Source: a virus. Taken from it: a stretch of 64,000 nt of DNA. This document shows, in pieces, positions 1,181 to 43,359 of the stretch. Positions within the stretch are counted from its first letter, which is position 1. Each line of letters starts with the position of its first letter. The translations under genes were made by a program, and so were the position numbers. The stretch covers positions 64,001 through 128,000 of the IMG/VR virus record IMGVR_UViG_3300010354_000044. One strand, 5' to 3'. Under the pieces are notes generated by a model. That model did no database searches. It saw only the letters and a program-made list of their open reading frames with translations, and was not told where the DNA came from.

Positions 1181-1419
1181 AGCCGGAGTATAAGCTGCGC
1201 CTATTGGCTGTATACACGCAGTTTCTACTCCGGCTAAGTGGGTGTGTCTGCTGCGCCTATCCCCTGCCCCTGTCGGCTACCTGTAGGACTATTCCTACTT
1301 ATGGCTGACAGGGGCATTTTGCTTTGACCCAGATATGGGGTCGTTAAATATACGTATTCGGTTTGTCCAGCCCGCCCAAAGCTGGATTAGTAAATTATTC
1401 CCAAGGAGGGAACATCATG
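1181..1419 (+). repeat. Intergenic module copy 2 with class I element copy 4 (1325-1386)
   Basis: See 540-752. Confidence 0.85.
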
Positions 1420-4400
1420 GCTATTTTGACCATTCTTACCGTTACCGCTACTATCTCAGCCTCCGCCCCTGGGGCTAAGCCCAAAGCGCGTAAGCGCCCC
1501 AACCGTGCTGCACAAAAAGCACAGCAACGCAGGGCCGCATTCTTACGTCGTAAGCGGCAGTCCCGTAATGGGCGCCGCCCATTCCATGGGGTGCGGTATT
1601 GTAATATTGCTGATAGGCCCAAGGCCCGTCAGCAGAAGTTTTGGGCCCGTGCCCGTAAGCTGGGAGTTGCCAGGGAGGTAGCCCACCTCCTATGGATGGG
1701 CGACGACTTAGGCGCCAGGCGCGTCCTTAAGGAGGCCCGGCGGCGCTACCAAGTAAAGCGTAGCCTTGTGCTGCGCACCCCGGTTGATAGCCGGGGGGAC
1801 GAAGCTTTACAGGCCAGGCCCAGTCTAAAACCCTCCACCGGGAGGGTATTTGAGAGGGGCACTAAAGGGAAACCCCCACGTAACTGGGGGTTGACGAAAA
1901 AGTCCCAGCCAGAGCCTAGCTGGCGGGACTTCCTTGTTAAGGCTAGGGAGGTTCACCGGGACATCCTAGCTGACCTGGTTAGGGTCGTGGGTGGGGAGCC
2001 TACAGACACCGTTGTCTGTATGGCCCAAACCCCTCCTCCCCCTTCCCCCCAAGGGCGGCAGTCTACCCTCCAAAGGGTAAATGGGCTAGGGCTACCGTTT
2101 GAGCTGTCGGAGGACCAGCTCACCGCCCTAGACAAGATGCTGGCGTTCGCAGAGAGCCCGGCCCGTGGAGGTACCTTTACCTTAGAAGGGTACGCGGGTA
2201 CAGGTAAGACTACTTTGCTACCTATTTTCCTACGGTTACTGCCAAGGAATATCCGGGCGGCTACCGCAGTAACCGCGCTCAGTAACAAGGCGGCGCGTGT
2301 ACTGTCTGAGAAGCTACGGGGCCAAGGTTTACGTGTAGAGGCTTCTACCATTCACAAGCTTCTAGGTATTAAGGCTATCAAACAGAATGCAGAGATTCAG
2401 TTTGATAGGGGAGGGAGCTGCACTATCAGCGAAAACTTGCTCGTTATCGTAGACGAGGCGTCTATGCTGGGCGAGGTCTTATGGAACCATATGACTTCCT
2501 ACTTCAAGAGCATTAAGTTCTTATTTACAGGCGACCCAGCTCAGTTACCGCCTGTTAACGAAACTGGGGCTCCGTGTTTTAGCTTGGCTGATGACTATGC
2601 CAAGTTGACTAAGGTCCTTCGGCATGGCGGTCCAGTTCTACGTGAGTCAACGCTAGTCCGTGACCTGGGGCATGGTACTTACCACCCGGCTCAGTCGCTG
2701 AGTGAAGGTAATAACGTCTTCTGTTATCAGCACATTAACTGGTTTAAGGTCATTAGTGGGTTGGTAAGTGACCCTGAGAAGTGGGCCAAATTTACCGATG
2801 ATCCTAACTTCTTTAGGATTGTGGCCTGGCGTAACGCTAGGGTTGCTGAGCTAAATACCTATGTCCGCCAACTATTGCACGTAGGGAAAAAGCTGGAGCG
2901 TTTCATGGTGGGGGACCTTGTCATATTAGACGCCCCGTATGAAGACCTCTTTACAGGGGATGAGTTTTGGGTACGTGCTGTAAATAATGGCAAGGTTGAT
3001 GGCTGGAATTGCCTGGAGATTACCTTGGAACCGGTGCATGATGCAAAGGCTGAAACTATAGTACGAGTGCTTGCTGCGGAGGAAGCAAGCCGGTACAAGC
3101 AAGAGTCAGACCGGTTACGTGAACTGGCAACACAGCATGTTATTCCTTGGGCGGAGTACTGGGCGTTGCAAGAATTATTCGCAGGGCTCAGTTATGGCTA
3201 TGCTATGACAGTCCACAAGTCTCAAGGGTCTACGTTTCGTAACGTTCTGGTGGACTATAGCGACATCAAGTTATGTAGGGGTCTTGAGCTTAATAAGCTT
3301 ATCTACGTAGCTATAAGTCGTGCGTCTAAGAACGTCATTATGAACGTAGGCACGAGTCCCATTTATGAGCGGGTGAAACCTGCCGGGGAAATTGATACAG
3401 GACCGCCGGAAATACCAGAACCCCCGGTGGTGAATGCCCAGGAGCCTGTGGTAGAGGAGGCCCCGCCTACCTTGCCAGAGGAAGAGTCTGTTGCTGAGGT
3501 AGGCGCGAGCGTCTCTATTGCTGTTGCTCCACAAGAGCCGGCAGTAGAGGAAACTCAGGCTGCGCCTATTAACACAGGGCAGCCTGTGACGGAAACAACC
3601 ACGAAGGAGGAAACTATGTGGTTTGTAGAGATTGACGTAGCGGAACTCACGTTCTTTGCTACAAAGACCAATCATGCGGGTACATTCCCCGTCAACGGTC
3701 TAGAAGTCTTTAAGAAGGGCTTGCTAGGCAAGGGGTATAAGCTTGTGGAAACGCAAGTAGGCCCCGAAGGGGAGGAGCTTAAGCTCGTCTACGCTAAGCA
3801 GCCGCCTACGGCGCTTGGTGGAGAACGAGCCCCGGCTGACCCGCCTGACCAGCCGTTTGCTTCTGGCAACGTAGCCCAGTTCAAGCAGACGGTGCTGAAC
3901 TTTATTGCTCAGCGACTCGGGAAGCTGCACCAGCAGTATCCCGAGTCTGGTATGCGGGAGTTGATCGTCCGCATGACAGAGGCGATTAACTACAGCCCGC
4001 GGGATGCCTTCTTCGCCGCTCCGCTCAGTGACATGCTAAGTATGTGGGTATTTGAGGCGACCCACTCTAAGGAGCTTGGTAACCGGCCTATTCCGGTTAT
4101 TGAGAAGGAGGCTTACTACCTCTCTGGTAAGTGCCTCACTGGGCGCCCGTCGCTGATCGGAGACTTGGACCTTCTGTTGAGCCGCCAACGGCTTGACATT
4201 GAAGGCGATAGTTACCGCCTGCGGTATCCCATTGAGCAGGTAGAGGCGGCGATACTGGACGCTGAGGGCCGGGATCTCTATGAGGGTTACCGGGTTATCC
4301 TCAGCGAGGGTATCAAAAGCCACGCTGTCCTCAATGGTAACTTCCCCCACCTAGGGGTTGAAGTTGAGGATATGGCGGCAGCGCTGACTGTCCACCAGCT

Positions 4401-7400
4401 AGCGCCCAGTGCCTTTAGCTATGGCCTGCCTATCGTCAAGGCTGTGCTTGCAGAGCACCTGGCCGAGGTGCTTTGTCAACTTGGCTATAGCGAGGCTGTA
4501 GCAGGGATGGTAAGCATCCCTGCTGGGTGGAATCTGCCTTGCCCGCAGATGACTGTCGCTAAGCTCAAGAATATGCTTGAGTACATTAGCGACGTGTTCT
4601 CTTCTTTTGGTATCAAGGATTACGAGTATATCTCGTTGAGTCCTGATGCCACGGAGGAGAAGTTCACCGTGTACATCTGCGGCATTGAATTTGCCGTGGA
4701 TGCTCAAGGTGTAACCTTGGTTGACGCGCTGAATCAGAAGGCCATATACGCCACGTATATGGCCCTTCCTATTTGCCATAGAAGCATCCGGGAGGATGAA
4801 GGCGCTTTGATGAGCCCTCACGCGGTCTTCGCCTATATGCTAGCTGAGGTTGTCTTGCCTCTGCTAGTTCGGGTAGACCGTGATAGCTACCGGAATAGGC
4901 TGGTAGGTAGCAATGTCATGCAAACCTACTTCCGAGTAGCTGGGGCGGTAAACACGTATCTTCGTAATTACGTGTCTATTGACCTCCGTTCAGCTACCAT
5001 CGGTGAGCTAGACGACGCAGCAGAAGCCCGCAACCGGGGTGTCGTGGCAGTAGCCTTGAACTACCCCCGCTCCCTATACCGGGATGCTCTGCCTTCAGAG
5101 GTCAAGTCTGGCAATGGATTCTCCATGCTTAACGTAGGCCTTATGAAGGGAAACATCTACGTTGGGGGTGGCAAGGCTATGCCTTCTGAGCTCAGCGTAG
5201 AGGAACGGCAGAACCTAATCCTTGAGCGCGCTGCGCTTAAGACTTTGGGTTACGCTAACACTCAAGTAGTCCACAAGCGGATGCTTGAGCTCGGCTTCTG
5301 CCAAGAGCCGTTCGGGCGGATGACTGTGGTATCGCAGGACATCCATGGCATTAACTTCACAGGTCAGAAAGAAGCTGTGAAGGACTTCTGGGAAAGCCAG
5401 GGCGTCGTAGATGTCATGGAGGTGGCTGCAATCCTAGGCTGCAGAGCAGACTGGACGGAGATCGCGCGAGAAACTTTCGTCGCGTTGTCCAATAAGGGCG
5501 CTAAGCAGCTCAAGCGGACGGCCAACTTCTACCACAATGGCTGTATCTTCATTAGCCAGGCGGTGCAGGCGGCTCAGACCAACGGGGTCTTCAATGAAAT
5601 CAAGGCACTGGCTGTTAAGGCAATTATTGCCAACAGTGCTTTATTCGGTGGCCCTGGTATGGTTTGGGCTAACAAGCAGAAGATTCAGGACATGGGCATC
5701 CGGTACCGCACCGGTGGCCAGGTCTATGAATTCAGCTCCGAGAGTCAGCTGTACTGCGAAGGCTTCGCTTATGAAGCTCAGCATTATAACGAGCACTCCG
5801 GCTGGAACAGCGTGGAGCCTGTAGACCTCCATGTTGTAGAAGGCCGGCCCTTCGGCTTGCTCATCAAGCACGACGGGTACGAGGCAAACATCTCTGCAGA
5901 GCAGAGTGGCCAGGTCACTAAGATCATGTGGCGCTGGGTCACGAAGTTCAATGCCGAGGTGATGGAACTCCGGCTCATCTATGATAAGCGGGAGTATGGC
6001 GCCTTTAAGATCCGTAATGGCTACAAGGGCCTAGTTGCCTTCGTTGAGCCTGAACTGATCGGCAAGGGTGCTGACCTGGTTATCTTCGGGGATGCCAATA
6101 AAACCATGGACATTCTCTACTCCCGCCTACGGGAGGCCGCAGAGAGCTTCGTCCGGGTGCCCCGTGGAACTACCGTTACCCTTAACGGTAAGGACTATGA
6201 TCTCCGCGAGCTGCTGCGTTCATTGAACCAGCAGGCTGGTCCGGCCATGGGTATGGCTATTGAAGACTATGACAGGGATGATCGCCTGTTCATTGACTTC
6301 AAGCTGTTGGCTAAAGGCGCTTACGACATTGTAGGCGAGCTCTTTGAAGCTATCTTTGGCCAGTCCCACTGGTTCCGTTTTGATGGGCCCGACCTGGTCA
6401 AGTTCACGGCCCAGTATTACGGAGCCAAAGCGGAAGCCAACGAAGGCTGGCGTAAGCTGGTTCCTGCTGAGCTTAAGGGTCTAGGCTACCCGAACGCCGT
6501 CGGTTTTACCGATGGTAAAGTAAATGACCCGCATAGCAATGTGCTGGTTGTTGAAGAGGGTGTCGTGCACCACCGTTCCTGGGTCTATGCCGCTAAAGAC
6601 GGTATTGACCTGTATGTTCCGATTAAGCCGGAATATACCACCGTCAGCCAGAACGTGAACTATGCACCTTTGGCTCTCGGCCCTATTGTAGACCCCAGTA
6701 TCCCGACTGAGGTGGCCCGGGAGCTCATCCATGCTGGTGAGGCCAATCGGACCAAGTACACGCTTCTGCATATTTTGCGGAAGCATAGCCTGGGTCCTGT
6801 GGCGTTCACGATGGGTGGCGTTGAAGTGCAGACCGTAACTCTGGCTAGCACGGATACGTTTGCTGGCTTCTTTGGTGAGCATACCCAGATGCTTCAGCAC
6901 AAACGGGCCCTCAGCCGCACTAGTTTTGTACGCGCACTCTGCAACCTATTGCAGACTAAAGTGCTGTGCGTGGAAACTAGTAGATGGACCGAGAGTGGTA
7001 GGGTGATGGCTAACATTTACCTACCTCTGTTGTCCAGCTTTATCATCGGCTCGCTGGATGACCATGCCGATGAGAGCAGCCTCGCGGGTAATGCCTTCAT
7101 GTTCTTTGACATGTGGGCCGCGGGTGAATCGCTCAGTAGCCCAGCCATGGTCAAGATTGCAACTACCATAAGCAATCTGATCAGCAAGCTCTGCGACGGT
7201 AATCGTATGCAGAAGCAGCTGACCTATGGTCCTACCGCTGTAGGTGCGAAGTTGGGTGCATTGCCCATTATCCCCACTGGGGAGCTATGGGTGCTGCGTG
7301 GTGGCGAAGTGCATCGTCGCTTGAAAGTGCGCTTTGGCGATGCCATTAACAATGGCTACGTCATGATGGTGCGTGCGCCTATGACCCGTTCTTGCATCTG

Positions 7401-9942
7401 CAAACTGCGGGTTGTAGACGCTGAGCAGCGTGGGTTTGTACTAAACGGAGTGATGATGTATACATCTCCCTTCGGTCAGTACTTTAATCTAGGTGACTTT
7501 GACGGCGATGGTGTCTTTACCTATGACATCACTAAGTACGTCAACGCTGGGCTCATCAAGCAAGACTCCTACGAGTCTATGCTGGAGTTCCAGAAGTCCC
7601 TGCTCGGGTATGACATGATGTCCCCTGAGTTCTGGGGTTCTGGCGCCCCTGCTCAGTATTATGCAGACCACTATGACATTCCTAGCTACGCTGCTCTGCA
7701 GAAGAAGCTGGGTATGAAGTGTCTGGATAGCGAAGGGCGTTTGATGAACCCTGAGAAGGCCCATGTCTTTAACCGAAAAGCGTTTGAGCTAAGGCAGACC
7801 GGGGCATATGAACAGCAGACCCGGTATGTCTCTTCTTCTTATGGAGTAGAGTACTTTGCTCAGGTCTTTGCTGAGATCTGCCGGGCTATGGGCTTTAAAG
7901 ACTTCATGTGGCTGGCTGACCTAGCGCCGCAGCTGCAGTCCTTGTATGAGGTCGCCCTGGGTGGATACGACAACAACATGTTGTATGTCGCCTTTGGCCT
8001 TATGGACCGAGCCTATAACGGTATGAAGCATACGCCGCACTGGCTGAAGATTGTAGATGAAGATATCTACGATCGCTTCGTTACCGGCAAGACTCATTAC
8101 TACCGGCCTACGGCGTTTCTGAAGGATACTGAGTATACAGCCTTCACCGGGCTGCCCTTTACTGAGGTTCTTCCTTACATGCAGACCCTAGGCTTCTGCT
8201 GGAAGGATGGTAAGCGGGATGATGAGGCTATCCATGGCTTCATCAATGCCGCTATGCTCGCAGGGCTTGCTAAGGTTGCCCGAAAGCTTCCTAAGCCTGA
8301 AGACAGCACTAGCCCGGCTGCGATCGTAGACCAGCTGTTTGAAGATATGGTCGCTGTCTACGGGCGTGACTTTGCTACGGCTGTTCATATGGCGCAGATT
8401 ATCTGCGACACAAGCCGTAATAAAGATAATCAGCGGGGTGGTCAACTGTGCCGGCTTGTTCATGAGCACATGATTGAGCGTTCAGCCGTTGCGCTATTGT
8501 TCAAGCTCATCATGGATGCAAAGCAGCGTATTAACGCGCCCACGCCCGAGCTTAATATTAACGATGTCATTGCTTTGACTCGTTATATTGAGCTTGCTGA
8601 TGTCCTCTCTGAACAGGATGAGGAGTTCCTTGATGTACCTAGTACATCTGGGGAAGCTGCGGCAGAGCCTGAAGATGATAATCAAGGTGATGATGATGAA
8701 GGGGGCATTGCTGTGCCGGAGCCTACTCCGGATAAGCCCGGCCCTGCACCAGGAGCTGCTGAGCCCATTGAGGAGAGCCCTGCTGGTATTGTTCAAGAAG
8801 ATGCAGGATCTTGTATCGTACAAGATCCAGCTACTGTGGAGGTAAAATCCATGTACGTGCAGAACTGGTTCTCAAATATGCTCCCATTAGAAGTCCCAAT
8901 TAAGACTGACTTTGGGACCTTTCAAACGGTAGAGAACTACTACCAGGCTATGAAAACCCTAGACTTGGAGCAAAGGAAAATTATAGCTGAGCTATCTCCC
9001 CACGCTAGTAAGCGTTATGGTCGGCGTAAAATTCAATTACGCTCTGACTGGGAGCAGATCAAGCTAGCTGTTATGGAGGAAGCTCTTCGCAAGAAATTCG
9101 CTCCTGGGACTAAAGCCCTTGAGAGATTACTTGCAGAAAAAGGTGAGATAGTTGAATGGAATAACTGGGGTGATACTTACTGGGGGGCTCTTGCTACTTT
9201 AAGTAATGACGGAACAGTTATTCCTGTTGAGCCTCGTAAAGGCTGTAACCATCTTGGGCGTTTGCTCATGGCCGTTAGAGACGAACATTTAGCGGAGAAT
9301 AAAGTGACCGGAATATTTGACGTGCCCGCGCAGGTGCTGGTTAATCCAGTTAACTGCGGCGGTACCTGGGGCGGAGCTCTTTCCAAAGGGTTCATAGACC
9401 GATACCCAGAAAATACAGCCGCCCTCAAAGTGGCCTCTGAAGCCGGGTCCGTTAAGATAGGGCAGGTGTTAGTGACTGAGGAAGGGGGTAAGTTCATTGT
9501 GAACTTACCTACTAAGCTGGATGCTAACATCCCCAGCCGGCTCGTTGACATAGAAGCTGGTTTATACGCCTTACTAGCCTGGGCTCTGGTTAATAAGCCC
9601 AAATCCATTGCCATACCCGCCCTAGGGTGTGGCCTCGGTGGGCTTAAGTGGGAGGATGTGCTCCCAGTGATTAAACAGGTAGCCACGCTTATGGGTAACC
9701 ATGGTATTGTGGTTTACCTGTTTAACGACCGTGCCGAGCTAGTCACGGTTGACGGAGTTCCTGTCCAGTACGAGGAAGAAATCGTAGAGGAAGAGGTAGT
9801 AGAGCCCCAGCGTCCTACTCTTCCTAAGCTACCTACCCTCAAGCCTCCACAGGCTAACGATGAGGACGAGTATGTGGAGTATGTGGAGCAGGACCCCAAC
9901 ATGCCTGAAGCTGAAGTAGGGGGTCTCTTCAATAATCAATAA
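1417..9942 (+). CDS. Giant polyprotein: SF1B (Dda/RecD-like) helicase + single-chain two-barrel RNA polymerase + NADAR + macrodomain
   Basis: Helicase motifs GYAGTGKTT, VDEASM, GDPAQLPPV, TVHKSQGSTF, YVAISRA; RNAP motifs FKIRNGYKG (~6004-6030), VRAP (~7369-7380), NLGDFDGD (DFDGD 7495-7509); NADAR FSN..TVENYYQAMK..DTYWG..NHLGRLLMAVR; macro VNPVNC..NLPTK..SIAIPALGCGLGGLKW; SD-supported ATG at 1417. Confidence 0.85.
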   Translation: MAILTILTVTATISASAPGAKPKARKRPNRAAQKAQQRRAAFLRRKRQSRNGRRPFHGVRYCNIADRPKARQQKFWARARKLGVAREVAHLLWMGDDLGARRVLKEARRRYQVKRSLVLRTPVDSRGDEALQARPSLKPSTGRVFERGTKGKPPRNWGLTKKSQPEPSWRDFLVKAREVHRDILADLVRVVGGEPTDTVVCMAQTPPPPSPQGRQSTLQRVNGLGLPFELSEDQLTALDKMLAFAESPARGGTFTLEGYAGTGKTTLLPIFLRLLPRNIRAATAVTALSNKAARVLSEKLRGQGLRVEASTIHKLLGIKAIKQNAEIQFDRGGSCTISENLLVIVDEASMLGEVLWNHMTSYFKSIKFLFTGDPAQLPPVNETGAPCFSLADDYAKLTKVLRHGGPVLRESTLVRDLGHGTYHPAQSLSEGNNVFCYQHINWFKVISGLVSDPEKWAKFTDDPNFFRIVAWRNARVAELNTYVRQLLHVGKKLERFMVGDLVILDAPYEDLFTGDEFWVRAVNNGKVDGWNCLEITLEPVHDAKAETIVRVLAAEEASRYKQESDRLRELATQHVIPWAEYWALQELFAGLSYGYAMTVHKSQGSTFRNVLVDYSDIKLCRGLELNKLIYVAISRASKNVIMNVGTSPIYERVKPAGEIDTGPPEIPEPPVVNAQEPVVEEAPPTLPEEESVAEVGASVSIAVAPQEPAVEETQAAPINTGQPVTETTTKEETMWFVEIDVAELTFFATKTNHAGTFPVNGLEVFKKGLLGKGYKLVETQVGPEGEELKLVYAKQPPTALGGERAPADPPDQPFASGNVAQFKQTVLNFIAQRLGKLHQQYPESGMRELIVRMTEAINYSPRDAFFAAPLSDMLSMWVFEATHSKELGNRPIPVIEKEAYYLSGKCLTGRPSLIGDLDLLLSRQRLDIEGDSYRLRYPIEQVEAAILDAEGRDLYEGYRVILSEGIKSHAVLNGNFPHLGVEVEDMAAALTVHQLAPSAFSYGLPIVKAVLAEHLAEVLCQLGYSEAVAGMVSIPAGWNLPCPQMTVAKLKNMLEYISDVFSSFGIKDYEYISLSPDATEEKFTVYICGIEFAVDAQGVTLVDALNQKAIYATYMALPICHRSIREDEGALMSPHAVFAYMLAEVVLPLLVRVDRDSYRNRLVGSNVMQTYFRVAGAVNTYLRNYVSIDLRSATIGELDDAAEARNRGVVAVALNYPRSLYRDALPSEVKSGNGFSMLNVGLMKGNIYVGGGKAMPSELSVEERQNLILERAALKTLGYANTQVVHKRMLELGFCQEPFGRMTVVSQDIHGINFTGQKEAVKDFWESQGVVDVMEVAAILGCRADWTEIARETFVALSNKGAKQLKRTANFYHNGCIFISQAVQAAQTNGVFNEIKALAVKAIIANSALFGGPGMVWANKQKIQDMGIRYRTGGQVYEFSSESQLYCEGFAYEAQHYNEHSGWNSVEPVDLHVVEGRPFGLLIKHDGYEANISAEQSGQVTKIMWRWVTKFNAEVMELRLIYDKREYGAFKIRNGYKGLVAFVEPELIGKGADLVIFGDANKTMDILYSRLREAAESFVRVPRGTTVTLNGKDYDLRELLRSLNQQAGPAMGMAIEDYDRDDRLFIDFKLLAKGAYDIVGELFEAIFGQSHWFRFDGPDLVKFTAQYYGAKAEANEGWRKLVPAELKGLGYPNAVGFTDGKVNDPHSNVLVVEEGVVHHRSWVYAAKDGIDLYVPIKPEYTTVSQNVNYAPLALGPIVDPSIPTEVARELIHAGEANRTKYTLLHILRKHSLGPVAFTMGGVEVQTVTLASTDTFAGFFGEHTQMLQHKRALSRTSFVRALCNLLQTKVLCVETSRWTESGRVMANIYLPLLSSFIIGSLDDHADESSLAGNAFMFFDMWAAGESLSSPAMVKIATTISNLISKLCDGNRMQKQLTYGPTAVGAKLGALPIIPTGELWVLRGGEVHRRLKVRFGDAINNGYVMMVRAPMTRSCICKLRVVDAEQRGFVLNGVMMYTSPFGQYFNLGDFDGDGVFTYDITKYVNAGLIKQDSYESMLEFQKSLLGYDMMSPEFWGSGAPAQYYADHYDIPSYAALQKKLGMKCLDSEGRLMNPEKAHVFNRKAFELRQTGAYEQQTRYVSSSYGVEYFAQVFAEICRAMGFKDFMWLADLAPQLQSLYEVALGGYDNNMLYVAFGLMDRAYNGMKHTPHWLKIVDEDIYDRFVTGKTHYYRPTAFLKDTEYTAFTGLPFTEVLPYMQTLGFCWKDGKRDDEAIHGFINAAMLAGLAKVARKLPKPEDSTSPAAIVDQLFEDMVAVYGRDFATAVHMAQIICDTSRNKDNQRGGQLCRLVHEHMIERSAVALLFKLIMDAKQRINAPTPELNINDVIALTRYIELADVLSEQDEEFLDVPSTSGEAAAEPEDDNQGDDDEGGIAVPEPTPDKPGPAPGAAEPIEESPAGIVQEDAGSCIVQDPATVEVKSMYVQNWFSNMLPLEVPIKTDFGTFQTVENYYQAMKTLDLEQRKIIAELSPHASKRYGRRKIQLRSDWEQIKLAVMEEALRKKFAPGTKALERLLAEKGEIVEWNNWGDTYWGALATLSNDGTVIPVEPRKGCNHLGRLLMAVRDEHLAENKVTGIFDVPAQVLVNPVNCGGTWGGALSKGFIDRYPENTAALKVASEAGSVKIGQVLVTEEGGKFIVNLPTKLDANIPSRLVDIEAGLYALLAWALVNKPKSIAIPALGCGLGGLKWEDVLPVIKQVATLMGNHGIVVYLFNDRAELVTVDGVPVQYEEEIVEEEVVEPQRPTLPKLPTLKPPQANDEDEYVEYVEQDPNMPEAEVGGLFNNQ

Positions 9943-10872: not shown

Positions 10873-11281
10873 GCCCCCCATTCTGCCGTCCTCCCAAGGG
10901 CGGCAGTTTGGTTTGGATGTTACGTAACGGCGAAGTCTTGACCTCCTTCCCCTTACCGACACATCCCACCTCGGCCCTACCCGGTGGGCTAGAAAACTAC
11001 CGGGCGGTGTCGGCTAAGGCGACGTTAAAGACACGCGCGGGGGGAGGACCTAAGCTCCAAAACCCCGCCATGAGGTGTACCAGGACTGTACACCAAATAA
11101 GCCCAGTCCCCTCTAGGGGTTCAAAAAGCCTGGGTCAATGTGCAAAGGGGGCTTGGCCAGCCCCCGGATGGGCTCGCTTTGCCCTCATGCCCAGGGCGCC
11201 CTGGGCAAAAACCAAACCGCCGTTGTGTTAGCTATGATAAGCTAATATAGCGGCGGTTTGGTTTAGGAAAGGTGTAAAAGA

Positions 11282-11668
11282 ATGTTCGTATCACAAATTG
11301 AAGAAGTCTTGTACCGCCCCTATACAACGGGGATGATACGGGAGGAGCTGCCGCAGTCCACAATAAAAGCGGTGGTCGTCTCCCTAGCGGGGACAGACTA
11401 CACGCAACTCCCGGAGGAGGGAGATCTAGATACAGGAAATCTAGGCCTATGCCTGGAATTCCCTGCTTTTGGCTGCCCTCAATGGGTAGTGGCAAAAGTG
11501 GCAAAGAGGACCTCCCACTACCCGTGGGTAGGGGTCTTTGACCACGGTAAAAGGGAGTTCGTGGTAATACACACGATTGCCGATTACTGGGTACCTCAGT
11601 ACCCGGTAATGGGGGAACTCCTTAGCCGCACTCCAGAGGGGGTGGAGCTAGTGCTTCCCCCGGTGTAG
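11282..11668 (+). CDS. Hypothetical protein
   Basis: ORF behind class II hairpin and purine-rich SD. Confidence 0.75.
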   Translation: MFVSQIEEVLYRPYTTGMIREELPQSTIKAVVVSLAGTDYTQLPEEGDLDTGNLGLCLEFPAFGCPQWVVAKVAKRTSHYPWVGVFDHGKREFVVIHTIADYWVPQYPVMGELLSRTPEGVELVLPPV

Positions 11669-11744
11669 GCTAATCCTACAAACCGCCGTGTATTAGCTTA
11701 TTATAGTTAATACACGGCGGTTTGATTTTGACGGAGTAGAGACT

Positions 11745-12131
11745 ATGGAAATTATGATCAAGTACCCCGCAGGGGGTACCGCTATTGTTTGCGAGCTCCC
11801 CCCTGCAGGGAGTCTCCCTACCGCGTTTGCGTTAGAAGATGTCTCTAGACCTAGACAAGTAATCCGCATTGAGCGGAGAGAGGAGGGCGACCTCCTGGTT
11901 GAACGGGGAATCGTAGGTAGACACTGGCACGTATATAAGGTAGCTACTATTAAGGTAGCTGGTATTTGGGGGGAAGTCCGCGGGGACTTCTGCTCCATTA
12001 AGGAAGGGGATGGGACAATAATTGAATACAGAAAAGGCCCAGGGGATTATTGTATCTCCTGCGGGACTTTTCAAGGCCCTCGCGGGGAGTACCGCGAGGG
12101 CCATAACTGCTACATGTGCGGGATGAATTAG
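11745..12131 (+). CDS. Hypothetical protein with C-terminal CxxC..CxxC zinc ribbon
   Basis: CISC...CYMC; behind class II hairpin. Confidence 0.75.
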   Translation: MEIMIKYPAGGTAIVCELPPAGSLPTAFALEDVSRPRQVIRIERREEGDLLVERGIVGRHWHVYKVATIKVAGIWGEVRGDFCSIKEGDGTIIEYRKGPGDYCISCGTFQGPRGEYREGHNCYMCGMN

Positions 12132-12371
12132 CATGTATATGTCTCCGTTAAAACAGCTAGGCTTGTGGGTATCAGGAGTGGCGATTGGCTTTGCGATCGC
12201 CACTGGTATCCAATTGGTAGAGTGCCCGCCACCGCTACCATCTACAGAGCAACAGCCTTGAAACCAAACCGCCGTTACTAAGCTACTATAAGCAAAGTAA
12301 CGGCGGTTTGATTTATTCCACGGATTCACTACAATAATTACCCCCGACCGTGGCGGGGGAGGAGGAAAATT

Positions 12372-13298
12372 ATGAGCCTGTTGTTTGTATTAAACCCCGC
12401 GCCCAAGGCGCAGGAGGAAATGATCAAATTGATTAAGGCCCAGCCCGGGCCTTACATCGGGTTGGAAATGACGGTCCCAGAGCTAGCAGCTCTGATGGAC
12501 GTCAATATAGACCCTCAACATACAGGCTTTGACGCAGCGACGAGCTGCGTCAAAGCCTGCCTAGAAGGGTCCTTCCTGGTGAAGGGAGGGGCCTACTTCA
12601 CCGTCCGCGCTGACCTGGACGCATTCGCGTCCTACCTGATCCTCGCGGGTCTAGTAGATATTAATAATGAAGATGTCTTCGTCAGACTCATGATGATTCA
12701 TGTAGCGGATACGTTCGCCCATGGCCCTTGGTCACTTGGAGCTAGCGGTACTGGCTATGAAAAGCCTTCGTTGGCGGGTATTAACCGCTGCGTGGCGGAC
12801 TACAAGCTGCCGGTAGAGGAACGGCTCGCTGCTCTCCAGCATTGGCTGGAAACCGGGGAGCATCCAGAGAAACACCTGGCTGAGGTAGAAGCCGAGGCCG
12901 AGGAAATCGCCACCGCCTTAGAAAGCGGGCAGACTGTAGTAACCATTTTAAGTGGTTACACCATAGTACAGTCTGAGTTGCGCGGAGCACCCAGCATTGG
13001 CTACCGGAGTAATCCGGTGGTTCTTGCGTGGAACCCGGCCTTCCCCATTTACGGGGAAATTGATGGAAATCAGGTTGTCGTTGGGCAAGGGCTTAAGTAC
13101 TCCGTCTGCCAGTGGGCAGAGGGGTACATTGACCTGAATGGTTTCCTTGCGGAAATCCGTAAGGAAGAGCCCGGGTGGGGAGGAAGCCCCACGTTCGTAA
13201 GCTCGCCCCAGAACGTGGCTAGTGAGGTCCCACTACAGCGTGTGCAAGAACTGTTTTACCAGTTCTTGCACCCTACTGCACAACTTGCTAGTTGCTAA
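12372..13298 (+). CDS. Putative DHH-like phosphoesterase
   Basis: IDPQH, RADLDAFAS and C-terminal GWGGS motifs; strong SD GGAGGAGG. Confidence 0.45.
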   Translation: MSLLFVLNPAPKAQEEMIKLIKAQPGPYIGLEMTVPELAALMDVNIDPQHTGFDAATSCVKACLEGSFLVKGGAYFTVRADLDAFASYLILAGLVDINNEDVFVRLMMIHVADTFAHGPWSLGASGTGYEKPSLAGINRCVADYKLPVEERLAALQHWLETGEHPEKHLAEVEAEAEEIATALESGQTVVTILSGYTIVQSELRGAPSIGYRSNPVVLAWNPAFPIYGEIDGNQVVVGQGLKYSVCQWAEGYIDLNGFLAEIRKEEPGWGGSPTFVSSPQNVASEVPLQRVQELFYQFLHPTAQLASC

Positions 13299-13386
13299 TG
13301 TTTCGTAAATCAAACCGCCGTTACTAAGCTATTATGCAAGGTAACGGCGGTTTGATTTACATAGCTATAGCTAAGGGAGAAACTAA

Positions 13387-13773
13387 ATGGATTGGGTCAG
13401 AACGATCCAGGAGCAGGTAGCTCCTGTTATGCTGAGTGAGTTTGAGGACCGAAAAAGACGCCTAACGGTTTTCCTGGAATTATGGAAACGTCAAGAGCCC
13501 CAAGCATATGCTAAATGGGCCCAAGAGGAGGAAGAGGCCACACTTGCCGACTGGCAGTGGGCTAACGGCACGGGAAATGGGACGTTTGGCCCTCTGTCGG
13601 TCTATCATATAGATCCGACAGAATATATAAAGATAGGTGTCCCCACTAAACAAGCCTACGCGGGCTTGTTCAACAAGGATACCCGAACATGGACCGGCGT
13701 GTACCTAAATAAAATACAAACCCTATGCTTGAGTAGTAAACTACCCAAGCATTGCGAGATAAGGGTCATATAG
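13387..13773 (+). CDS. Hypothetical protein
   Basis: Behind class II hairpin, SD. Confidence 0.75.
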   Translation: MDWVRTIQEQVAPVMLSEFEDRKRRLTVFLELWKRQEPQAYAKWAQEEEEATLADWQWANGTGNGTFGPLSVYHIDPTEYIKIGVPTKQAYAGLFNKDTRTWTGVYLNKIQTLCLSSKLPKHCEIRVI

Positions 13774-13840
13774 GTTGCTGCCGTGGTGTTGACTCCCTAG
13801 GTCAACACCACGGCGGTTAGATTTGCAGTAGGAAATAACC

Positions 13841-14029
13841 ATGCTTACAGAACACCAAAAAAATCACGCAGCGAAGACCCTCAGGCTATTTGAAGTTCTT
13901 CCTCCATACAGCGAGGAAGAGCTTACTAAGATCGTAAATGCGCATGCGCAAATCAGCGCATCGCTGAAGGATATAATAGTAAAGCGGGATGGAAGCGGCC
14001 ACGTTGATTGGGGAGATTTATTCTTCTAG
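13841..14029 (+). CDS. Hypothetical protein, 62 aa
   Basis: Behind class II hairpin. Confidence 0.7.
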   Translation: MLTEHQKNHAAKTLRLFEVLPPYSEEELTKIVNAHAQISASLKDIIVKRDGSGHVDWGDLFF

Positions 14030-14206
14030 GCCGCCGAAACTGCCGCAAGAGGCCGGGTAAACGGGTGTCTACTGATGGAGGAAACGTGCAATGAAATAAA
14101 AGCCGCACGTTCTAGCCTCCGGTAGGTGTACGAACTGCCGGTAATAAAGCCTATTACAGCTTATTACCGGCAGTTTGATATAGTTACCCCAGGAGGGGAG
14201 GAATAT

Positions 14207-14542
14207 ATGAACGTAGTATTTAAGGAGTTCATGGTTGCGCTAGTAGAGAATAATATCAGTTTCTCCTTTCATCAGACGCAGCGTGGAGCATCAAAGGGGA
14301 TTACCATACACTTCGGTACCGCTGAGGGGAGCTATTTCTTCACTCCAACGGAAAAAGAAATCGCGCTATACGCCCCGAACAGGACGTTCACCGGGGGTTA
14401 CATTTACTCCTTTGAGGATGTAGCCCAACTGGCGTTCAAGTATTGGACATCCTCTGAGGACAGTTATGTCCTAGAGGAGTGGGAGGATATTTTCCGGGAA
14501 CGGGGATGGGTTGAAGAGGTTACCGTCCTCAAGCCTAAATAA
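14207..14542 (+). CDS. Hypothetical protein; start moved to ATG 14207
   Basis: GGAGG SD; hairpin 14133-14180 lies in the leader. Confidence 0.7.
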   Translation: MNVVFKEFMVALVENNISFSFHQTQRGASKGITIHFGTAEGSYFFTPTEKEIALYAPNRTFTGGYIYSFEDVAQLAFKYWTSSEDSYVLEEWEDIFRERGWVEEVTVLKPK

Positions 14543-14610
14543 AAACTACCGGGGTATTGATCCTAAAAATCAATACCCCGGCTGTTTGATTTACTCATAG
14601 GGGAGGCGAA

Positions 14611-15321
14611 ATGTACTTAGTAGGGGGGTCCGTTAGGGACCTTTTGTTAGAGCTCACTGTTGACGACTACGACTTTGTATTCGTAGCCTACAGCTGGGAG
14701 CATTTGGTAGAACTAGCCCAAGGGGAGTTTGGGCCAGTTCCTAAGGCCGGGACGGAATCTGGATTTGTTGAATTTCCAGACACCTTCACCTTAAAGGGGA
14801 TGAAGGTGATTGATAGGAAGCGGCAGATCTGTGACATTGCCGCTGCCCGGCGGGAATACCACAGTGGCCCCGGGCATAAGCCCTCGGCTATTTCTTTGGC
14901 GCCTACGCTAGAGGAAGACCTAAAGCGCCGGGACTTCACAGTTAACGCGATGGCACGTGACTGGAAGACCGGTGAGTTAATTGACCTATATGGCGGGCAG
15001 GCCGACCTGTCCGCCAGGGTGCTTCGCTGTGTCGGCGATACGGAAAAACGCCTATTAGAGAACCCAGACCGGGTAATCCGGGCGTTTTATTTCCAGTGTA
15101 AACTAGTAGGCTTCACATTCTGTGAAGAGCTGGAAGCAGTTCTTCGTGAGTCTGTGGTGGTTCAAAAAGCAGTCGCCGACGACTGCCCTGACCGAAAAGC
15201 TCAGCAGCTGACTAAGCTCCTTAAAAGGGCTTCAACGGCTGAGCTGATGGGAACGATCTCCGAATACCCCCAAACATGGGCGGCGATCACAAAGGGGCTT
15301 AAGCTAAAGTTCACAACTTAA
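14611..15321 (+). CDS. tRNA nucleotidyltransferase (CCA-adding/poly(A) polymerase class II), short form
   Basis: VGGSVRD, DYDF, RRDFTVNAMA, ENPDRVIRA motifs. Confidence 0.85.
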   Translation: MYLVGGSVRDLLLELTVDDYDFVFVAYSWEHLVELAQGEFGPVPKAGTESGFVEFPDTFTLKGMKVIDRKRQICDIAAARREYHSGPGHKPSAISLAPTLEEDLKRRDFTVNAMARDWKTGELIDLYGGQADLSARVLRCVGDTEKRLLENPDRVIRAFYFQCKLVGFTFCEELEAVLRESVVVQKAVADDCPDRKAQQLTKLLKRASTAELMGTISEYPQTWAAITKGLKLKFTT

Positions 15322-15387
15322 GCACACCAGGCTGCCGCTATTACCCCCAATAGCGGCGGTTTGATTTGTAAATCTAAGGAGGGCTTT

Positions 15388-15756
15388 ATGACCAAGATAC
15401 ATCGGGACAGTCGGGGGGTGCTTTACCGCCTTCCCGACCTGGAAGACGCGCACCTAGAGAATATAATCAGGCGCCTAGAGCGGGCAGCCTGTCTAGGGGT
15501 ACGTGTTAAGGTAAAGTATGGGTACACAACCGTCTATGGCGTTGAGGCTGAGCAGTATTTAGAACTCTCAAAGTACCGCGAAGAGCAGGAAAGACGGGCT
15601 AAGATAGCAAGCTTGCGTAAAAGCGTGAGCGAACTTAAGGCTGTTTTAGCAGAGAGGCCTATTCCTAATATACAGGACATCATAAGAGCCCAAGAGGAGT
15701 GGTTTACACAATACCACTTCTACTGTAACGAACCCAAGCGTGGTGCTTACCGCTAA
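15388..15756 (+). CDS. Hypothetical protein; N-terminus resembles that of 60876..61520
   Basis: SD AAGGAGG before ATG 15388; LPDLEDAHLENII vs LSNLTDNHVKNVI. Confidence 0.7.
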   Translation: MTKIHRDSRGVLYRLPDLEDAHLENIIRRLERAACLGVRVKVKYGYTTVYGVEAEQYLELSKYREEQERRAKIASLRKSVSELKAVLAERPIPNIQDIIRAQEEWFTQYHFYCNEPKRGAYR

Positions 15757-15832
15757 GGGTAACTAAAAATGACAAGGCCGCCTGTGTATCCTATACACCG
15801 GCGGTTTGATTTGTAAGCTTTAAGGAGGGTTC

Positions 15833-16108
15833 ATGGCTAAAGTATTTACGAAGGTAGTGGGGCATTGTAGCGAATGCCCTAATTACCGAAAGGCCCCCTG
15901 GGGCGGGCAGTGTCTGTCACTTGAGGTAGATATCTATCTTAAGGCAGACACAGAAATCCTAGCTGATTGCCCACTAGAAGGAGACGGGGTACAGGTACAG
16001 GTACAGGAACCCGAGACTAAAGTGCGCTCAAGGGTTGACTGGAGTAAGGTACCTAAAGTAATTGAGCCGGAAGAGTTAGACTTCCGGCAAGCCTGCGAGG
16101 ATGCGTAG
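15833..16108 (+). CDS. Small Cys-rich protein
   Basis: CSECP..C..CPL; SD AAGGAGG. Confidence 0.7.
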   Translation: MAKVFTKVVGHCSECPNYRKAPWGGQCLSLEVDIYLKADTEILADCPLEGDGVQVQVQEPETKVRSRVDWSKVPKVIEPEELDFRQACEDA

Positions 16109-17184
16109 TGATAGGCTTCATCCTGGCCCTACTAGGGAGTAGAATCCCGAACGGGCCTTTAATAGCGTTGTTCATATGCCCCTCGGCATATGACGCTATC
16201 ACCTGCTTCTTTGCAGGCCTTTACCTGAACACTCCCCGGGAGCTGATGCGCCCGGAGGAGTCCGGCAATCTGGAGCAGATGCTTGCCACAGGCGGGCGGA
16301 GGCTCCGGTTTGACGATAGGACGCTTGGCATCGCCATTGAAGTAATGGTGCATGTCAAGCTGATGATGTTCATTTTCGGTCTAGCCTTCGGAGTTTTCTT
16401 CGGCTACGTAGGCGCAGACCGGATCTATGGAATGGCGCCCTTCACCGGGGCGCTCGTTATTCTTTGGGTCATCCTGAAGAGTGACGATACGGTAAAAACC
16501 ATTATTAGCCTGGCGTTTTCAGGCGTAATGGTTTTCGCCTTAATTAAGTTGGGGTTACCTAACGCCCTGCCGGTGCTATTGCTGACTCTAAGCACGTCGC
16601 CGGCAAAAGAAGAGGAGAGCGTTGAGGTGGATGGCCTTACCGAGGTCCTCCGCTGCAAAGAGCATGCCCCGATGGATTGGCTGCTCGGCGGGATGGTTGG
16701 GCTCGTCCCTGGCCTGAACGCCAGCAACTGGGTCTGTAATTTCGGGAATTCCGATAACCGGGATAACCGATTAACGGCCCTTGCCATAGGCATATTCGCC
16801 GAGGGTATTGCCCTTGGCGTCATCATGGCCTCCCGATTTACCGGGAAGACTGCGCTTAGCCAAATGCTAAGTGATTGGCAGTTCATTCCCGGCACCACCG
16901 CGCTGCTACTCGGGCTAATCGCCTGGATGGCAGCTGCGATGCTATATCGCCGGTGGCCGCGGCTGGCGATGGCCCAGGTCCCTGGGTTAGGCCTTATTGG
17001 ACAGGTAGGGCCTCTGGCCCTGGCGGTAGTTTACGCTACTGCCAACCAATGGGCGCTCCTATTTCCAGGCAGCGGCCTAGCTGCTGCGCTGGTTATAGTA
17101 GGAGGGCTGAAGATGTTGTCAGTCTCAGTACCTGACAACATCAAACCCGTCATCGCCACCCTACCCGTCTTGGGAGGTGGGTGA
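16108..17184 (+). CDS. Polytopic membrane protein (weak TctA-like GLVPG motif)
   Basis: Many hydrophobic segments; translationally coupled to neighbours. Confidence 0.65.
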   Translation: MIGFILALLGSRIPNGPLIALFICPSAYDAITCFFAGLYLNTPRELMRPEESGNLEQMLATGGRRLRFDDRTLGIAIEVMVHVKLMMFIFGLAFGVFFGYVGADRIYGMAPFTGALVILWVILKSDDTVKTIISLAFSGVMVFALIKLGLPNALPVLLLTLSTSPAKEEESVEVDGLTEVLRCKEHAPMDWLLGGMVGLVPGLNASNWVCNFGNSDNRDNRLTALAIGIFAEGIALGVIMASRFTGKTALSQMLSDWQFIPGTTALLLGLIAWMAAAMLYRRWPRLAMAQVPGLGLIGQVGPLALAVVYATANQWALLFPGSGLAAALVIVGGLKMLSVSVPDNIKPVIATLPVLGGG

Positions 17185-17561
17185 TGAAATTAAACTTAGC
17201 TCTAGCGCTGGGGGTGCTTGTTTTTGTTGGCCGTTGCGCCGACAATCGCACCCCGATGGAGTGGGAGGTGCATAACCTAGTCGAGTGCGACCAGGATGGG
17301 TGCTTCACAGAAGGCGGCGGTCGTGTTTCTGGCCACCACCTTCAAGAAGGCCTGCAGGAGGTGCTGATACAGAAGGGGAATAACCCAACCATCCTACGCA
17401 GCTCCCCTGTCCTAGGGAAGGAACCCCTAGGTAAAGTTACCGACATAGCCCCGGCGGGGGCGGAGTACGTAGTGACTGCTAACGGTGAGCAATACATCGT
17501 GGCAGACTGCGAAAAGGGTGCACAGCTATTCAAGAAGGGGTTAACCCTCTCCTGCGAATAG
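17181..17561 (+). CDS. Putative lipoprotein/secreted protein
   Basis: Hydrophobic N-terminus ending VGRC. Confidence 0.55.
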   Translation: MMKLNLALALGVLVFVGRCADNRTPMEWEVHNLVECDQDGCFTEGGGRVSGHHLQEGLQEVLIQKGNNPTILRSSPVLGKEPLGKVTDIAPAGAEYVVTANGEQYIVADCEKGAQLFKKGLTLSCE

Positions 17562-17794
17562 TTTGTACCCGTACAAAGGGCCCCCTCCCCTACTCCCCCT
17601 AAAAGCGGCGGGTTGGGAGAGGGTACGCTCCGCCCCCACCCCTCTCCCTCCTCCTCCTAAGCCCCCCAAGGGCGGCAGGATGGTCATGATGTTTCTTTAA
17701 ACAAATCGCTGTGTCCCCCAAGGATGCGGCGGTTTGCTTTAGGGGTTTAAACCCCTAAAGCATTATCCACTTAACCAAAACGAGTCAAATCAAA

Positions 17795-28077: not shown

Positions 28078-29139
28078 ATGAGAATGATAAGATTCCCTGA
28101 CGTTGGACAATTTAGGAATGTGGTCCAGTCACTTCGTCTGCGTGCTCAATTTGCAGGCAAGGCAGAGGATGGGACTCCTATTTATGACGAGTCAAGAAAG
28201 GCGCAGCCTGTTACCTTTTCTGGAACTGTAAAGCTTGATGGAACCAATGCTGCTATCTGTTTTGATGGCGAGAATACCTGGTTCCAGTCCCGAGAGAGGA
28301 TTCTTACCCTTGAAAGTGATAACTATGGGTTTTGTCGGAGATTTCAACAGGATGAAGCAGTTACTTCTTTGATTTCAAGTGTCACTGCAGCAGTGGAGTT
28401 TTCTAACGGGGAAACTCTTTGCATCTTTGGAGAGTGGATTGGAAAAGGCATTGCCAAGGGTATGGCCGTCTGTCAGATTGAGAGAGAGTTTATTGTTTTT
28501 GGCGTTGCTGTTTGCTCAGCCTTTGAAGGTGAACAGGCGGATGACTCTGCCTCTCTTAAGTGGATTGATTTAGGTACGCTTGATCAGGCGATTAAGGGTA
28601 GTGGCTTTGACACTGTTCTATCTTGTCCTCAGTATTTGCTTGTCGTTGATCCAGAGAATGCGGAGGCAGCCTGGCATACTGCAAAATCGCTAACTGACCT
28701 TGTTGTTAGTGAATGTCCATTTGGAAAGCTTCGCGGGAAAGTTGGAGCCGGAGAGGGTATTGTTTGGTTTGGTACTGATGATACTGGGAAAACTTTCCTG
28801 TTTAAAACCAAAGGGCAGAAGCAGTCTGTTGTCTCCTCTCCTAAGGAACTCCCTAAGTTTGAGGCTCAGGGTGCAATTAACACCTTTGTCACTGATGTAC
28901 TTACTGAGGCCCGGTTGAATCAAGGGATTGAGCGGGTCTTTACTGCAAACGACATTGTTCCGTCTATTGAAAAGACTGGCTCCTTCCTTCAGTGGATCAG
29001 CCGCGACATTGAAAAGGAGGAGGGTTTCTCTTTTGAGGCTCTTGCTGCTCTTGGTATTACCAAGAAGAAAGCTATGGGTCCAGTCAATCGTGCCGCTCGC
29101 GATTGGTTTATGGACTATCTAAACTTGTTGTCCCTGTAG
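28078..29139 (+). CDS. RNA ligase, Rnl2-like
   Basis: KLDGTN, FQSR, FGEW, GEGIVW, FKTK nucleotidyltransferase motifs. Confidence 0.85.
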   Translation: MRMIRFPDVGQFRNVVQSLRLRAQFAGKAEDGTPIYDESRKAQPVTFSGTVKLDGTNAAICFDGENTWFQSRERILTLESDNYGFCRRFQQDEAVTSLISSVTAAVEFSNGETLCIFGEWIGKGIAKGMAVCQIEREFIVFGVAVCSAFEGEQADDSASLKWIDLGTLDQAIKGSGFDTVLSCPQYLLVVDPENAEAAWHTAKSLTDLVVSECPFGKLRGKVGAGEGIVWFGTDDTGKTFLFKTKGQKQSVVSSPKELPKFEAQGAINTFVTDVLTEARLNQGIERVFTANDIVPSIEKTGSFLQWISRDIEKEEGFSFEALAALGITKKKAMGPVNRAARDWFMDYLNLLSL

Positions 29140-43295: not shown

Positions 43296-43359
43296 TATAT
43301 TTGCGCCAGAGGCCATTTTCTGTGTGTAGCAGAGCTACAGAATCATAATAAGTAGTATT

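Follow-up and report, generated by a model that had tools for sequence, protein, structure and literature searches.

The window analysed here, i.e., 64,000 nucleotides (nt) of the IMG/VR virus record IMGVR_UViG_3300010354_000044 (bases 64001-128000 of its source contig), raises the question of what a phage does with one giant open reading frame (ORF) that joins a helicase, a polymerase-like region and two enzymes of ADP-ribose (ADPr) removal. The source contig is 171,984 bp long and approximately 87% complete. The initial annotation, made from the letters of the window, had described the ORF as a helicase-RNA polymerase (RNAP)-NADAR-macrodomain polyprotein, and the presence and order of these modules were confirmed. 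The fusion protein is probably a single-chain two-barrel phage RNAP, i.e., a DNA-dependent transcriptase with helicase assistance and template de-ADP-ribosylation, made in infection rather than packaged. The locus suggests that a cyanophage-like virus carries a transcription enzyme that is itself equipped against a bacterial immune system that modifies DNA.

The open frame extends over 1363..9942 on the plus strand and contains 2,859 codons without a stop. Residue numbers follow the P0001 scheme, whose start at 1363 is 18 codons 5' of the ATG at 1417. The true start is this ATG. It is preceded at a spacing of seven bases by a Shine-Dalgarno (SD) sequence graded as strong, and the resulting length matches the database record P0002 exactly, so the stop-free ORF of approximately 2840 amino acids (aa) described before was borne out. 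The motifs also lie at the places and in the order reported, from the Walker A motif GYAGTGKT at aa 276 to the three polymerase motifs of Table 1. No protease or cleavage evidence was found for the fusion protein and the label polyprotein is unproven. It is better considered a multidomain fusion whose linkers are flexible and which may contain internal translation starts.

The middle region comprises approximately 1,660 residues at aa 752-2415. This region had no match in Pfam (E<=1), PHROGs or NCBIfam. A tblastn search against 50,697 phage records gave no identification, and neither phmmer nor a 49-sequence profile found a match among PDB sequences. The Pfam RdRP (PF05183) and RNA_pol_Rpb1/Rpb2 families were not matched in P0001 at E<=1. 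The first part of the region, the polymerase N-terminal extension, had no Pfam, PHROG or PDB match, and its protein Atlas scores were <=0.83, i.e., noise level.

The structure of the second part, the core, was more informative. An AlphaFold2 model of the core was built with A1, the family alignment of 49 sequences, and reached a predicted local distance difference test score (pLDDT) of 88 and a predicted template modelling score (pTM) of 0.88. Foldseek of this model against PDB gave 197 matches at E<=1e-3, with Rpb2/beta and beta' chains on top at probability 1.0. Model residues ~1-600 were aligned with beta/Rpb2-type subunits, including the non-virion RNAP (nvRNAP) chains of phiKZ and AR9, and residues ~648-1085 with beta'/Rpb1 subunits. 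Isolated double-psi beta-barrels (DPBBs), i.e., p97-N and a designed DPBB, matched model residues 659-775 at a root-mean-square deviation of ~2 A, and this barrel holds the R-x-P and DFDGD motifs. The first, beta-like barrel is supported only by the Rpb2/beta alignments of the model. The double-psi barrels proposed for the middle region were thus recovered in the prediction, beta-like before beta'-like, with matches to RNAP and QDE-1 folds.

The family of the core was collected by exhaustive HMMER search with residues 1300-2430 against 1.8 billion representatives (E<=1e-3). It comprises 48 related clusters (clustered at 50% identity), all of large proteins of 1,100-4,100 aa. The family is previously undescribed and is widespread in metagenomes. 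In A1, the near-invariant columns were K1549, R1551 and K1555, R2004 and P2006, and G2044-D-x-D-G. The same motif residues were invariant in 21 full-length members, and D[FYL]DGD was found in most members. The KG, RxP and DFDGD motifs, named earlier as two-barrel signatures, are therefore near-invariant columns of a 49-sequence family. D2045-F-D-G-D2049 follows R2004/P2006 41 residues downstream, which is the superfamily arrangement of DxDxD after R-x-P. Eight residues are invariant across all two-barrel RNAPs, including the Rpb1 R446/P448 pair (PMC2919709). Seven of the eight, i.e., three Asp, the R-x-P pair and two Lys, map to near-invariant family columns. The two lysines K1549 and K1555 are 6 apart, against 8 for Rpb2 K979/K987. 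By fold and motifs the polymerase belongs to the two-barrel superfamily, outside the Pfam RdRP and Rpb1/Rpb2 sequence families.

Two-barrel polymerases are divided into a cellular multisubunit clade and a single-chain clade, set apart by Chaban et al. (PMC10770324). Among the Foldseek matches listed, only RDR2, QDE-1, P74 gp62 and P23-45 gp96 were aligned over both model halves; gp66 and YonO were not among them. Because the best similarity over both halves is to single-chain members and the DbDGD signature is present, the middle region is placed, on the predicted model, in the single-chain clade, i.e., with QDE-1/cellular RNA-dependent RNA polymerases (RdRPs), YonO, crAss gp66 and P23-45 gp64/gp96. 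The best full-length structural matches were QDE-1 and the plant/fungal RDR enzymes (PDB 7y7p, 7y7s, 5fsw, 7w84), at ~10% sequence identity. Unlike these, the present polymerase is encoded by a phage and shares its chain with a helicase, NADAR and macrodomain, and its template is presumably DNA. Sequence similarity to SPbeta YonO, crAss phi14:2 gp66, Thermus P23-45 gp64/gp96 and P74 gp62 was undetectable. The fusion partners known for phage single-chain RNAPs are the tape-measure protein (gp96) or virion-targeting regions, whereas here they are a helicase and erasers.

The helicase module is of superfamily 1B (SF1B), as had been claimed. Pfam AAA_30 was found at 1.2e-21 (77.7 bits, cutoff 27) and UvrD_C_2 at 7e-10 (39.1 bits, cutoff 27.4). 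The PHROG match was phrog_325, 'Dda-like helicase', at 1.6e-77, and the nearest PDB entries were 9kwf, Dda 3upu and RecD2 3e1s. Motifs I, II, III, V and VI were all intact, i.e., GYAGTGKT, VIVDEASM, GDPAQLPP, VHKSQGSTF and YVAISRA. The possibility that this module is a recent copy of the separate Dda-like helicase of the phage was rejected, as BLASTP similarity was insignificant beyond Walker A.

DarT toxins modify single-stranded DNA (ssDNA), and DarG and NADAR act on ssDNA. The two de-ADP-ribosylase domains reported at the C-terminus, after an acidic linker, were recovered by Pfam and PHROGs as a NADAR domain and then a DarG-type macrodomain, both with active-site residues that appear conserved. 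The NADAR Pfam score was 67.5 bits against a cutoff of 35.1. Its E2524-x6-K2531 and D2604-x2-W2607 are spaced as the published E43/K50 and D130/W133; the equivalence is made by spacing and YbiA alignment. These published residues have catalytic and ADP-ribose phosphate/ribose-contact roles (PMC11543638). The Pfam Macro score was 41.7 against a cutoff of 22, and the nearest solved structures were DarG (5m3i, 9e-19; 5m31, 6e-17), then TARG1 (1e-6). The best NCBIfam model was antitoxin_DarG at 2.5e-31 over profile positions 8-149 of 338. The protein lacks the DarT-binding half of DarG, which keeps the score under the equivalog cutoff. K2718 of a PTK motif aligns with the DarG PTK lysine.

Phage erasers of the same two families have been studied. 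According to PMC11825919 and PMC13309987, AdfN (T4 30.3, NADAR) strips guanine-ADPr and counters DarT1, AdfM (phiKZ gp104, macrodomain) strips DarT2 adducts from phage DNA, and all phage NADARs tested to date take guanine-ADPr off DNA and act against DarTG1. PMC11825919 also reports that T4 AdfN requires its phage context, so physical recruitment to a DNA-handling enzyme would be a sensible solution. AdfN, AdfM and the antitoxins DarG1/DarG2 share both enzyme families and the conserved active-site residues with the present domains. AdfN and AdfM are small stand-alone proteins, whereas here both erasers stand in tandem at the C-terminus of a polymerase.

Table 1. Features of the fusion gene, with residues in the P0001 scheme and the ratio of nonsynonymous to synonymous substitution rates (dN/dS) of each module against the copy on contig L017
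Feature	Coordinates	Strand	Residues	Basis or remark	dN/dS
Whole fusion ORF	1417..9942	+		2,841 aa + stop codon	
SD AAGGAGG (1403-1409) and ATG (1417-1419)	1403..1419	+		sequence read; same SD and ATG in contig L017	
N-terminal Arg/Lys-rich region	1417..2091	+	19-243	composition; phmmer	0.38
SF1B (Dda/RecD2-like) helicase	2092..3375	+	244-671	Pfam AAA_30, AAA_19, UvrD_C_2, PIF1; phrog_325; PDB	0.17
Linker 1, Pro/Glu-rich	3376..3615	+	672-751	composition	
Internal AAGGAGG and ATG, start of polymerase part	3605..3618	+	M752	in-frame; first residue after linker 1; 51/51 nt identical in L017	
Polymerase N-terminal extension	3616..5259	+	752-1299	common only to closest relatives P0003, P0004, P0005, P0007	0.16
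Two-barrel polymerase core (predicted), beta/Rpb2-like half, then beta'/Rpb1-like half	5260..8607	+	1300-2415		0.10
Beta-like barrel basic motif FKIRNGYKG	6004..6030	+	from 1548 (K1549, R1551, K1555)	near-invariant in A1, invariant in A4 (21 full-length members)	
Beta'-like R-x-P motif VRAPM	7369..7383	+	from 2003 (R2004, P2006)	near-invariant columns	
Catalytic metal-binding motif DFDGD	7495..7509	+	from 2045 (D2045, D2047, D2049)	in barrel matched by isolated DPBB domains (model residues 659-775)	
Linker 2, acidic, Pro-rich	8608..8844	+	2416-2494	composition; pLDDT <50 at model end	0.82, nearly neutral
Internal GGAGG and ATG	8838..8853	+	M2497	in-frame; 4 residues before Pfam NADAR match; conserved in L017	
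NADAR domain	8845..9312	+	2495-2650	Pfam 2.1e-18; phrog_1017; YbiA 2b3w 5.8e-13; NCBIfam NADAR models	0.097
DarG/TARG1-type macrodomain	9313..9792	+	2651-2810	Pfam Macro 1.3e-10; PDB; NCBIfam	0.36
C-terminal tail, acidic, Pro-rich, and stop codon	9793..9942	+		composition	

Such a long ORF could be an artefact, i.e., an assembly chimera or a read-through of separate genes, and in-frame SD and ATG pairs at two module boundaries would fit genes that were once apart. The fusion gene is also present on L017, a JGI metagenome contig of independent origin (20.7 kb, ~88% nt identity). The L017 copy is open end to end over 2,839 codons in a single frame and was covered by one tblastn high-scoring segment pair over residues 13-2859 at 86% identity. 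A stop or chimera between domains had been named beforehand as the finding that would overturn the fusion, and no stop occurs at either junction in the two independent assemblies. The dN/dS ratios, obtained by the Nei-Gojobori method for the window copy against the L017 copy, place every enzymatic module under purifying selection (Table 1). The pattern indicates that each module is a functional, selected part of one frame, with linker 2 behaving as a spacer. In P0005 (2,686 aa, 35% identical), the N-terminal region, helicase and polymerase are again in one chain. With the open frame in both assemblies, selection along the whole ORF and the fusion repeated in a distant relative, the artefact is essentially excluded.

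The N-terminal region itself is conserved in the relatives P0004 (phmmer 3e-15) and P0005 (2e-20). Linker 1 had no family match in Pfam or PHROGs. M752 and M2497 are the only in-frame SD and ATG sites inside the ORF, and in P0005 the sole such site is at residue 339, where the helicase starts. The number of these sites is not above chance (shuffle mean 2.2), and their positions alone are notable. The sites may date from a time when the genes were separate, or they may still function as starts that give polymerase-eraser and eraser-only products.

Between the window and L017, the helicase (2092-3375) showed 68.5% aa identity and a synonymous rate (dS) of 1.38, and the macrodomain (9313-9792) 69% and 0.65. 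The dS of the modules flanking them was far below, i.e., 0.19-0.37. This excess divergence between the two phage strains suggests that the helicase and macrodomain were exchanged by recombination.

Fusion to a helicase recurs in the polymerase family. An SF1B helicase lies in the same chain in 9/48 clusters, and some of the absences may be shortened gene calls. It is N-terminal in P0001/P0003 and P0005, with the helicase-less P0004 nested among them, and C-terminal in P0021, P0026, P0027, P0035, P0041, P0044 and P0047. In the maximum-likelihood tree of the core, the N- and C-terminal forms stood in opposite major branches, the C-terminal form in two or three clades, and five state changes were counted. 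The helicases of the two forms are weakly similar to each other. From the opposite branches and this weak similarity, the fusion is judged to have arisen at least twice. Some members carry other modules in place of NADAR and macrodomain. P0047 has an AlkB-type 2OG-Fe(II) oxygenase between core and helicase, P0041 has DUF4326 at this place, and P0009 gave a weak C-terminal NADAR signal below threshold. DUF4326 has been linked to NAD/ADP-ribose systems (PMC7824862). The recurring combination appears to be a polymerase, a 5'->3' helicase and an enzyme that reverses base adducts on single-stranded nucleic acid.

In P0004, the upstream neighbour was considered as a detached helicase and rejected. 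The gene overlapping the 3' end of this polymerase (L010:9248-10228) is of DprA/SLOG type (PF02481; weak YpsA match) and stands at the position of NADAR and macrodomain.

The family also has members in cultured phages. The contig encodes a contractile tail sheath, rIIA, UvsX, a split DNA polymerase, a clamp loader, helicases and a DnaG-type primase. Relatives of the tail sheath were limited to Microcystis myophages of the Ma-LMM01/MaMV group and a single Microcoleus phage. In a Foldseek search of BFVD, the core model had its best viral match in a MaMV-DC protein (E 4.5e-16, TM score 0.52), identified by the family hidden Markov model (HMM) as gp065 (1,677 aa, 'hypothetical'; E 2e-10). Its LKLRGLGKK, RTPM and GDADGD align with the three motif blocks. 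The Ma-LMM01 orthologue is gp064, likewise annotated as hypothetical. Both are assigned by these alignments as members of the same polymerase family without fusions. They differ from the present protein in length (1,673-1,677 aa), in having no helicase, NADAR or macrodomain, in DADGD instead of DFDGD, and in an identity of ~12%. By the tail sheath, Ma-LMM01, MaMV-DC and the present phage are of the same lineage, and in all three a kinase gene lies downstream of the polymerase. The literature searched contained no paper tying Ma-LMM01/MaMV phages to a two-barrel RNAP.

The position and expression of gp064 bear on its role. It is placed just upstream of the early window gp063-gp054, with a 42-bp tandem repeat in between, and was scored as class B5, a middle-class transcript (PMC5780444 Table S3). 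Neither a phage sigma factor or RNAP nor a phage-specific promoter was detected in that study, which left the origin of the three temporal classes open (PMC5780444). Analogy with gp064 favours synthesis of the present protein after infection over packaging in the virion. The repeat, 6.7 copies of the 42-bp unit between gp064 and the first early gene gp063 (L016:7272-7552; Ma-LMM01 43271-43551), is a candidate middle/early regulatory element.

SF1B helicases translocate 5'->3' on ssDNA, and the polarity of the fused helicase is assumed from its family. No T7-type RNAP, sigma70 or Rpb1 domain was found in the contig by profile search (PF00623 absent; 14/14 controls detected). The enzyme is taken to be a DNA-dependent transcriptase, which would transcribe a class of phage genes: no second RNAP and no sigma factor could be recognised in the contig, which does encode a conventional primase and DNA polymerase. 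The helicase, held on an 80-residue flexible Pro/Glu linker, could open DNA or clear obstacles co-directionally, since 5'->3' on ssDNA is the direction of a transcribing polymerase along the non-template strand. On the acidic linker, NADAR (as AdfN, anti-DarT1, guanine-ADPr) and the macrodomain (as AdfM/DarG, anti-DarT2, thymine-ADPr) would clean the ssDNA exposed by the helicase and the transcription bubble. Such erasure would sustain phage transcription, and hence replication, in DarTG-armed hosts. We infer this mechanism, in which the helicase opens and the erasers clean, with comparative support from the recurrent fusions of helicase and damage-reversal enzymes in the family.

Several points weigh against this reading. 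For the fourth invariant Asp, the equivalent of Rpb2 D837, there are only candidates, the near-invariant D1577 and D1583. Both of the top structural matches are RNA-dependent enzymes. The nature of the template (DNA or RNA, single- or double-stranded) and of the product (RNA or DNA) is presumed, and the physical coupling of modules is supposed from their architecture. RNA, proteins and soluble ADP-ribose derivatives are further substrates of NADAR and macrodomain enzymes, and the gene neighbourhood is rich in RNA-repair genes. The missing part of the contig could hold another RNAP. The Ma-LMM01 authors explained all temporal classes by host SigA promoters (PMC5780444). In the present phage, sigma70-like sites were not enriched near the fusion gene (10 against 8.8 expected) and no phage-specific promoter was identified.

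Other roles for the protein were considered. It might be a virion-packaged 'polyvalent' protein, injected with DNA like N4 gp50 or crAss gp66, that transcribes the first genes as its helicase and erasers neutralise entry defences. Giant multidomain proteins in which an enzyme of the early life cycle is combined with counter-defence domains define this group (PMC5512222). Injected two-barrel RNAPs exist (crAss gp66, P23-45 gp96), the N-terminus here is strongly basic with acidic tails, and the leader of the gene shares repeated modules with upstream small genes. Polyvalent proteins of phages and conjugative elements, such as N4 gp50, likewise join an early-life-cycle polymerase and counter-defence enzymes in one polypeptide, but their RNAP modules described so far are N4/T7-like, not two-barrel (PMC5512222). 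The gene of the present protein sits among small non-structural, tRNA and RNA-repair genes rather than beside virion genes. The Ma-LMM01 homologue is a middle transcript directly upstream of early genes, and another giant ORF, which adjoins the structural module, is a better packaged candidate. Packaging is thus unlikely. Even less probable is a polymerase that copies the single-stranded nucleic acid made by its helicase and transcribes no genes. Such an enzyme could resemble a primase, restart replication or, like QDE-1, produce antisense or double-stranded RNA. The partners of QDE-1 on ssDNA are the RecQ helicase QDE-3 and RPA. QDE-1 and RDR2 gave the best structural matches over the full length, the joining of helicase and polymerase is reminiscent of helicase-primases, and repair modules of the fused kinds (DarG macrodomain, NADAR, AlkB) generally prefer single-stranded substrates. 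QDE-1 is described as active on both DNA and RNA templates (PMC9508822). However, the phage has its own DnaG-type primase, which weakens the primase version, and its own DNA polymerase, clamp loader and replicative-type helicases. The phage members of the single-chain clade that have been characterised are all DNA-dependent transcriptases, and the contig holds no other RNAP or sigma factor.

The substrate of the erasers was weighed separately. NADAR and macrodomain might act on ADP-ribosylated RNA (nascent transcript or tRNA), on proteins including the polymerase, or on soluble ADP-ribose signals and RNA-repair by-products instead of the DNA template. Reviews hold that phage Macro/NADAR may mostly target soluble ADPr derivatives or NAD-dependent RNA repair (PMC7824862, PMC9503650), and reversal of RNA ADP-ribosylation by NADARs and macrodomains has been reported (PMC11833690). 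Within the window are genes for a CCA-adding enzyme, for RNA ligases and for a Pnkp-like fusion, along with five tRNAs, and positive-strand RNA viruses place Macro/NADAR domains in their replicase polyproteins. Against this stand the macrodomain, which is by far closest to the DarG antitoxins, i.e., DNA ADP-ribosyl glycohydrolases, the action on guanine-ADPr in DNA of all phage NADARs tested so far, and the pairing of a G-specific with a T-specific eraser, which matches the two DarT classes. A non-DNA substrate is accordingly given a small chance. The transcriptase reading also has a stronger form, in which co-directional helicase and tethered erasers constitute a 'repair-coupled transcription' machine immune to both DarT classes. 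There, AlkB-like and DUF4326 enzymes would be swapped for the erasers, and the plain form would be the missing Ma-LMM01-type transcriptase that explains the temporal classes. This form is possible but doubtful.

Single-chain two-barrel phage RNAPs, SF1B helicases and anti-DarT erasers are already known. The polymerase family, its presence in cultured cyanophages and the fusion architectures are new. According to the initial annotation, no RNAP fused to both a helicase and two de-ADP-ribosylases is known to have been described, and none was found in the literature searched (NADAR/macro surveys, crAss and jumbo phage reviews). As far as this literature shows, these are the first anti-DarT erasers built into a polymerase. 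The family was missed by curated libraries, and it adds to a small set of enzymes and to the case for ancient, diverse viral single-chain RNAPs. It is also a testable answer to the Ma-LMM01 question, i.e., early, middle and late expression with no phage sigma, recognised RNAP or change of host transcription (PMC5780444). The cultured relatives Ma-LMM01 and MaMV-DC make experiments feasible.

The AlkB and DUF4326 parallels suggest a general strategy, in which lesion-reversal enzymes and a helicase are tethered to the enzyme that reads the damaged strand. Such tethering, if true, would give phages an equivalent of transcription-coupled repair, in convergence with RNA-virus replicases. The replicase polyproteins of alpha-like positive-strand RNA viruses follow the same logic, with an SF1 helicase, a macrodomain, AlkB or NADAR and an RdRP in one chain. 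AlkB domains occur in plant-virus replicases. The RNA-virus enzymes differ in their unrelated palm RdRP fold and their RNA genome, against DNA here, and the likeness is convergent.

A second giant ORF of 3,051 aa (L004:354-9509; genome 37354-46509, plus strand) is located outside the window and adjoins the structural module. It had no Pfam or PHROG match. Seven relatives, including one from a Leptolyngbya record, have GGDFDGD as an invariant motif. As a possible second two-barrel RNAP, it was compared with the polymerase family: the HMM matched the motif only, hhalign gave 15% probability, and an AlphaFold2 model from 7 sequences, with row P0054 excluded from the alignment, had a pLDDT of 46.

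Repeated elements surround the fusion gene. Its leader (1325-1419) repeats the leader of the preceding gene (658-752; also 227-261) at 87% identity. The small genes downstream (11243-17741) are separated by conserved hairpins (CAAACCGCCG...CGGCGGTTTGATTT, 8 copies), and 20 terminator-like sites were found against 11.4 expected. The leader repeats, hairpins and terminator-like sites could be phage-specific transcription or RNA-processing signals.

RNA-repair genes were identified at three places in the window (14611-15321, 28078-29139, 48839-51061), i.e., a CCA-adding tRNA nucleotidyltransferase, an RNA ligase and a 740-aa kinase/phosphatase/ligase fusion. Five tRNA genes lie at 30004, 33506, 33583, 38265 and 56277. 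Together, the RNA-repair genes and tRNAs suggest that the phage also counters anticodon nucleases.

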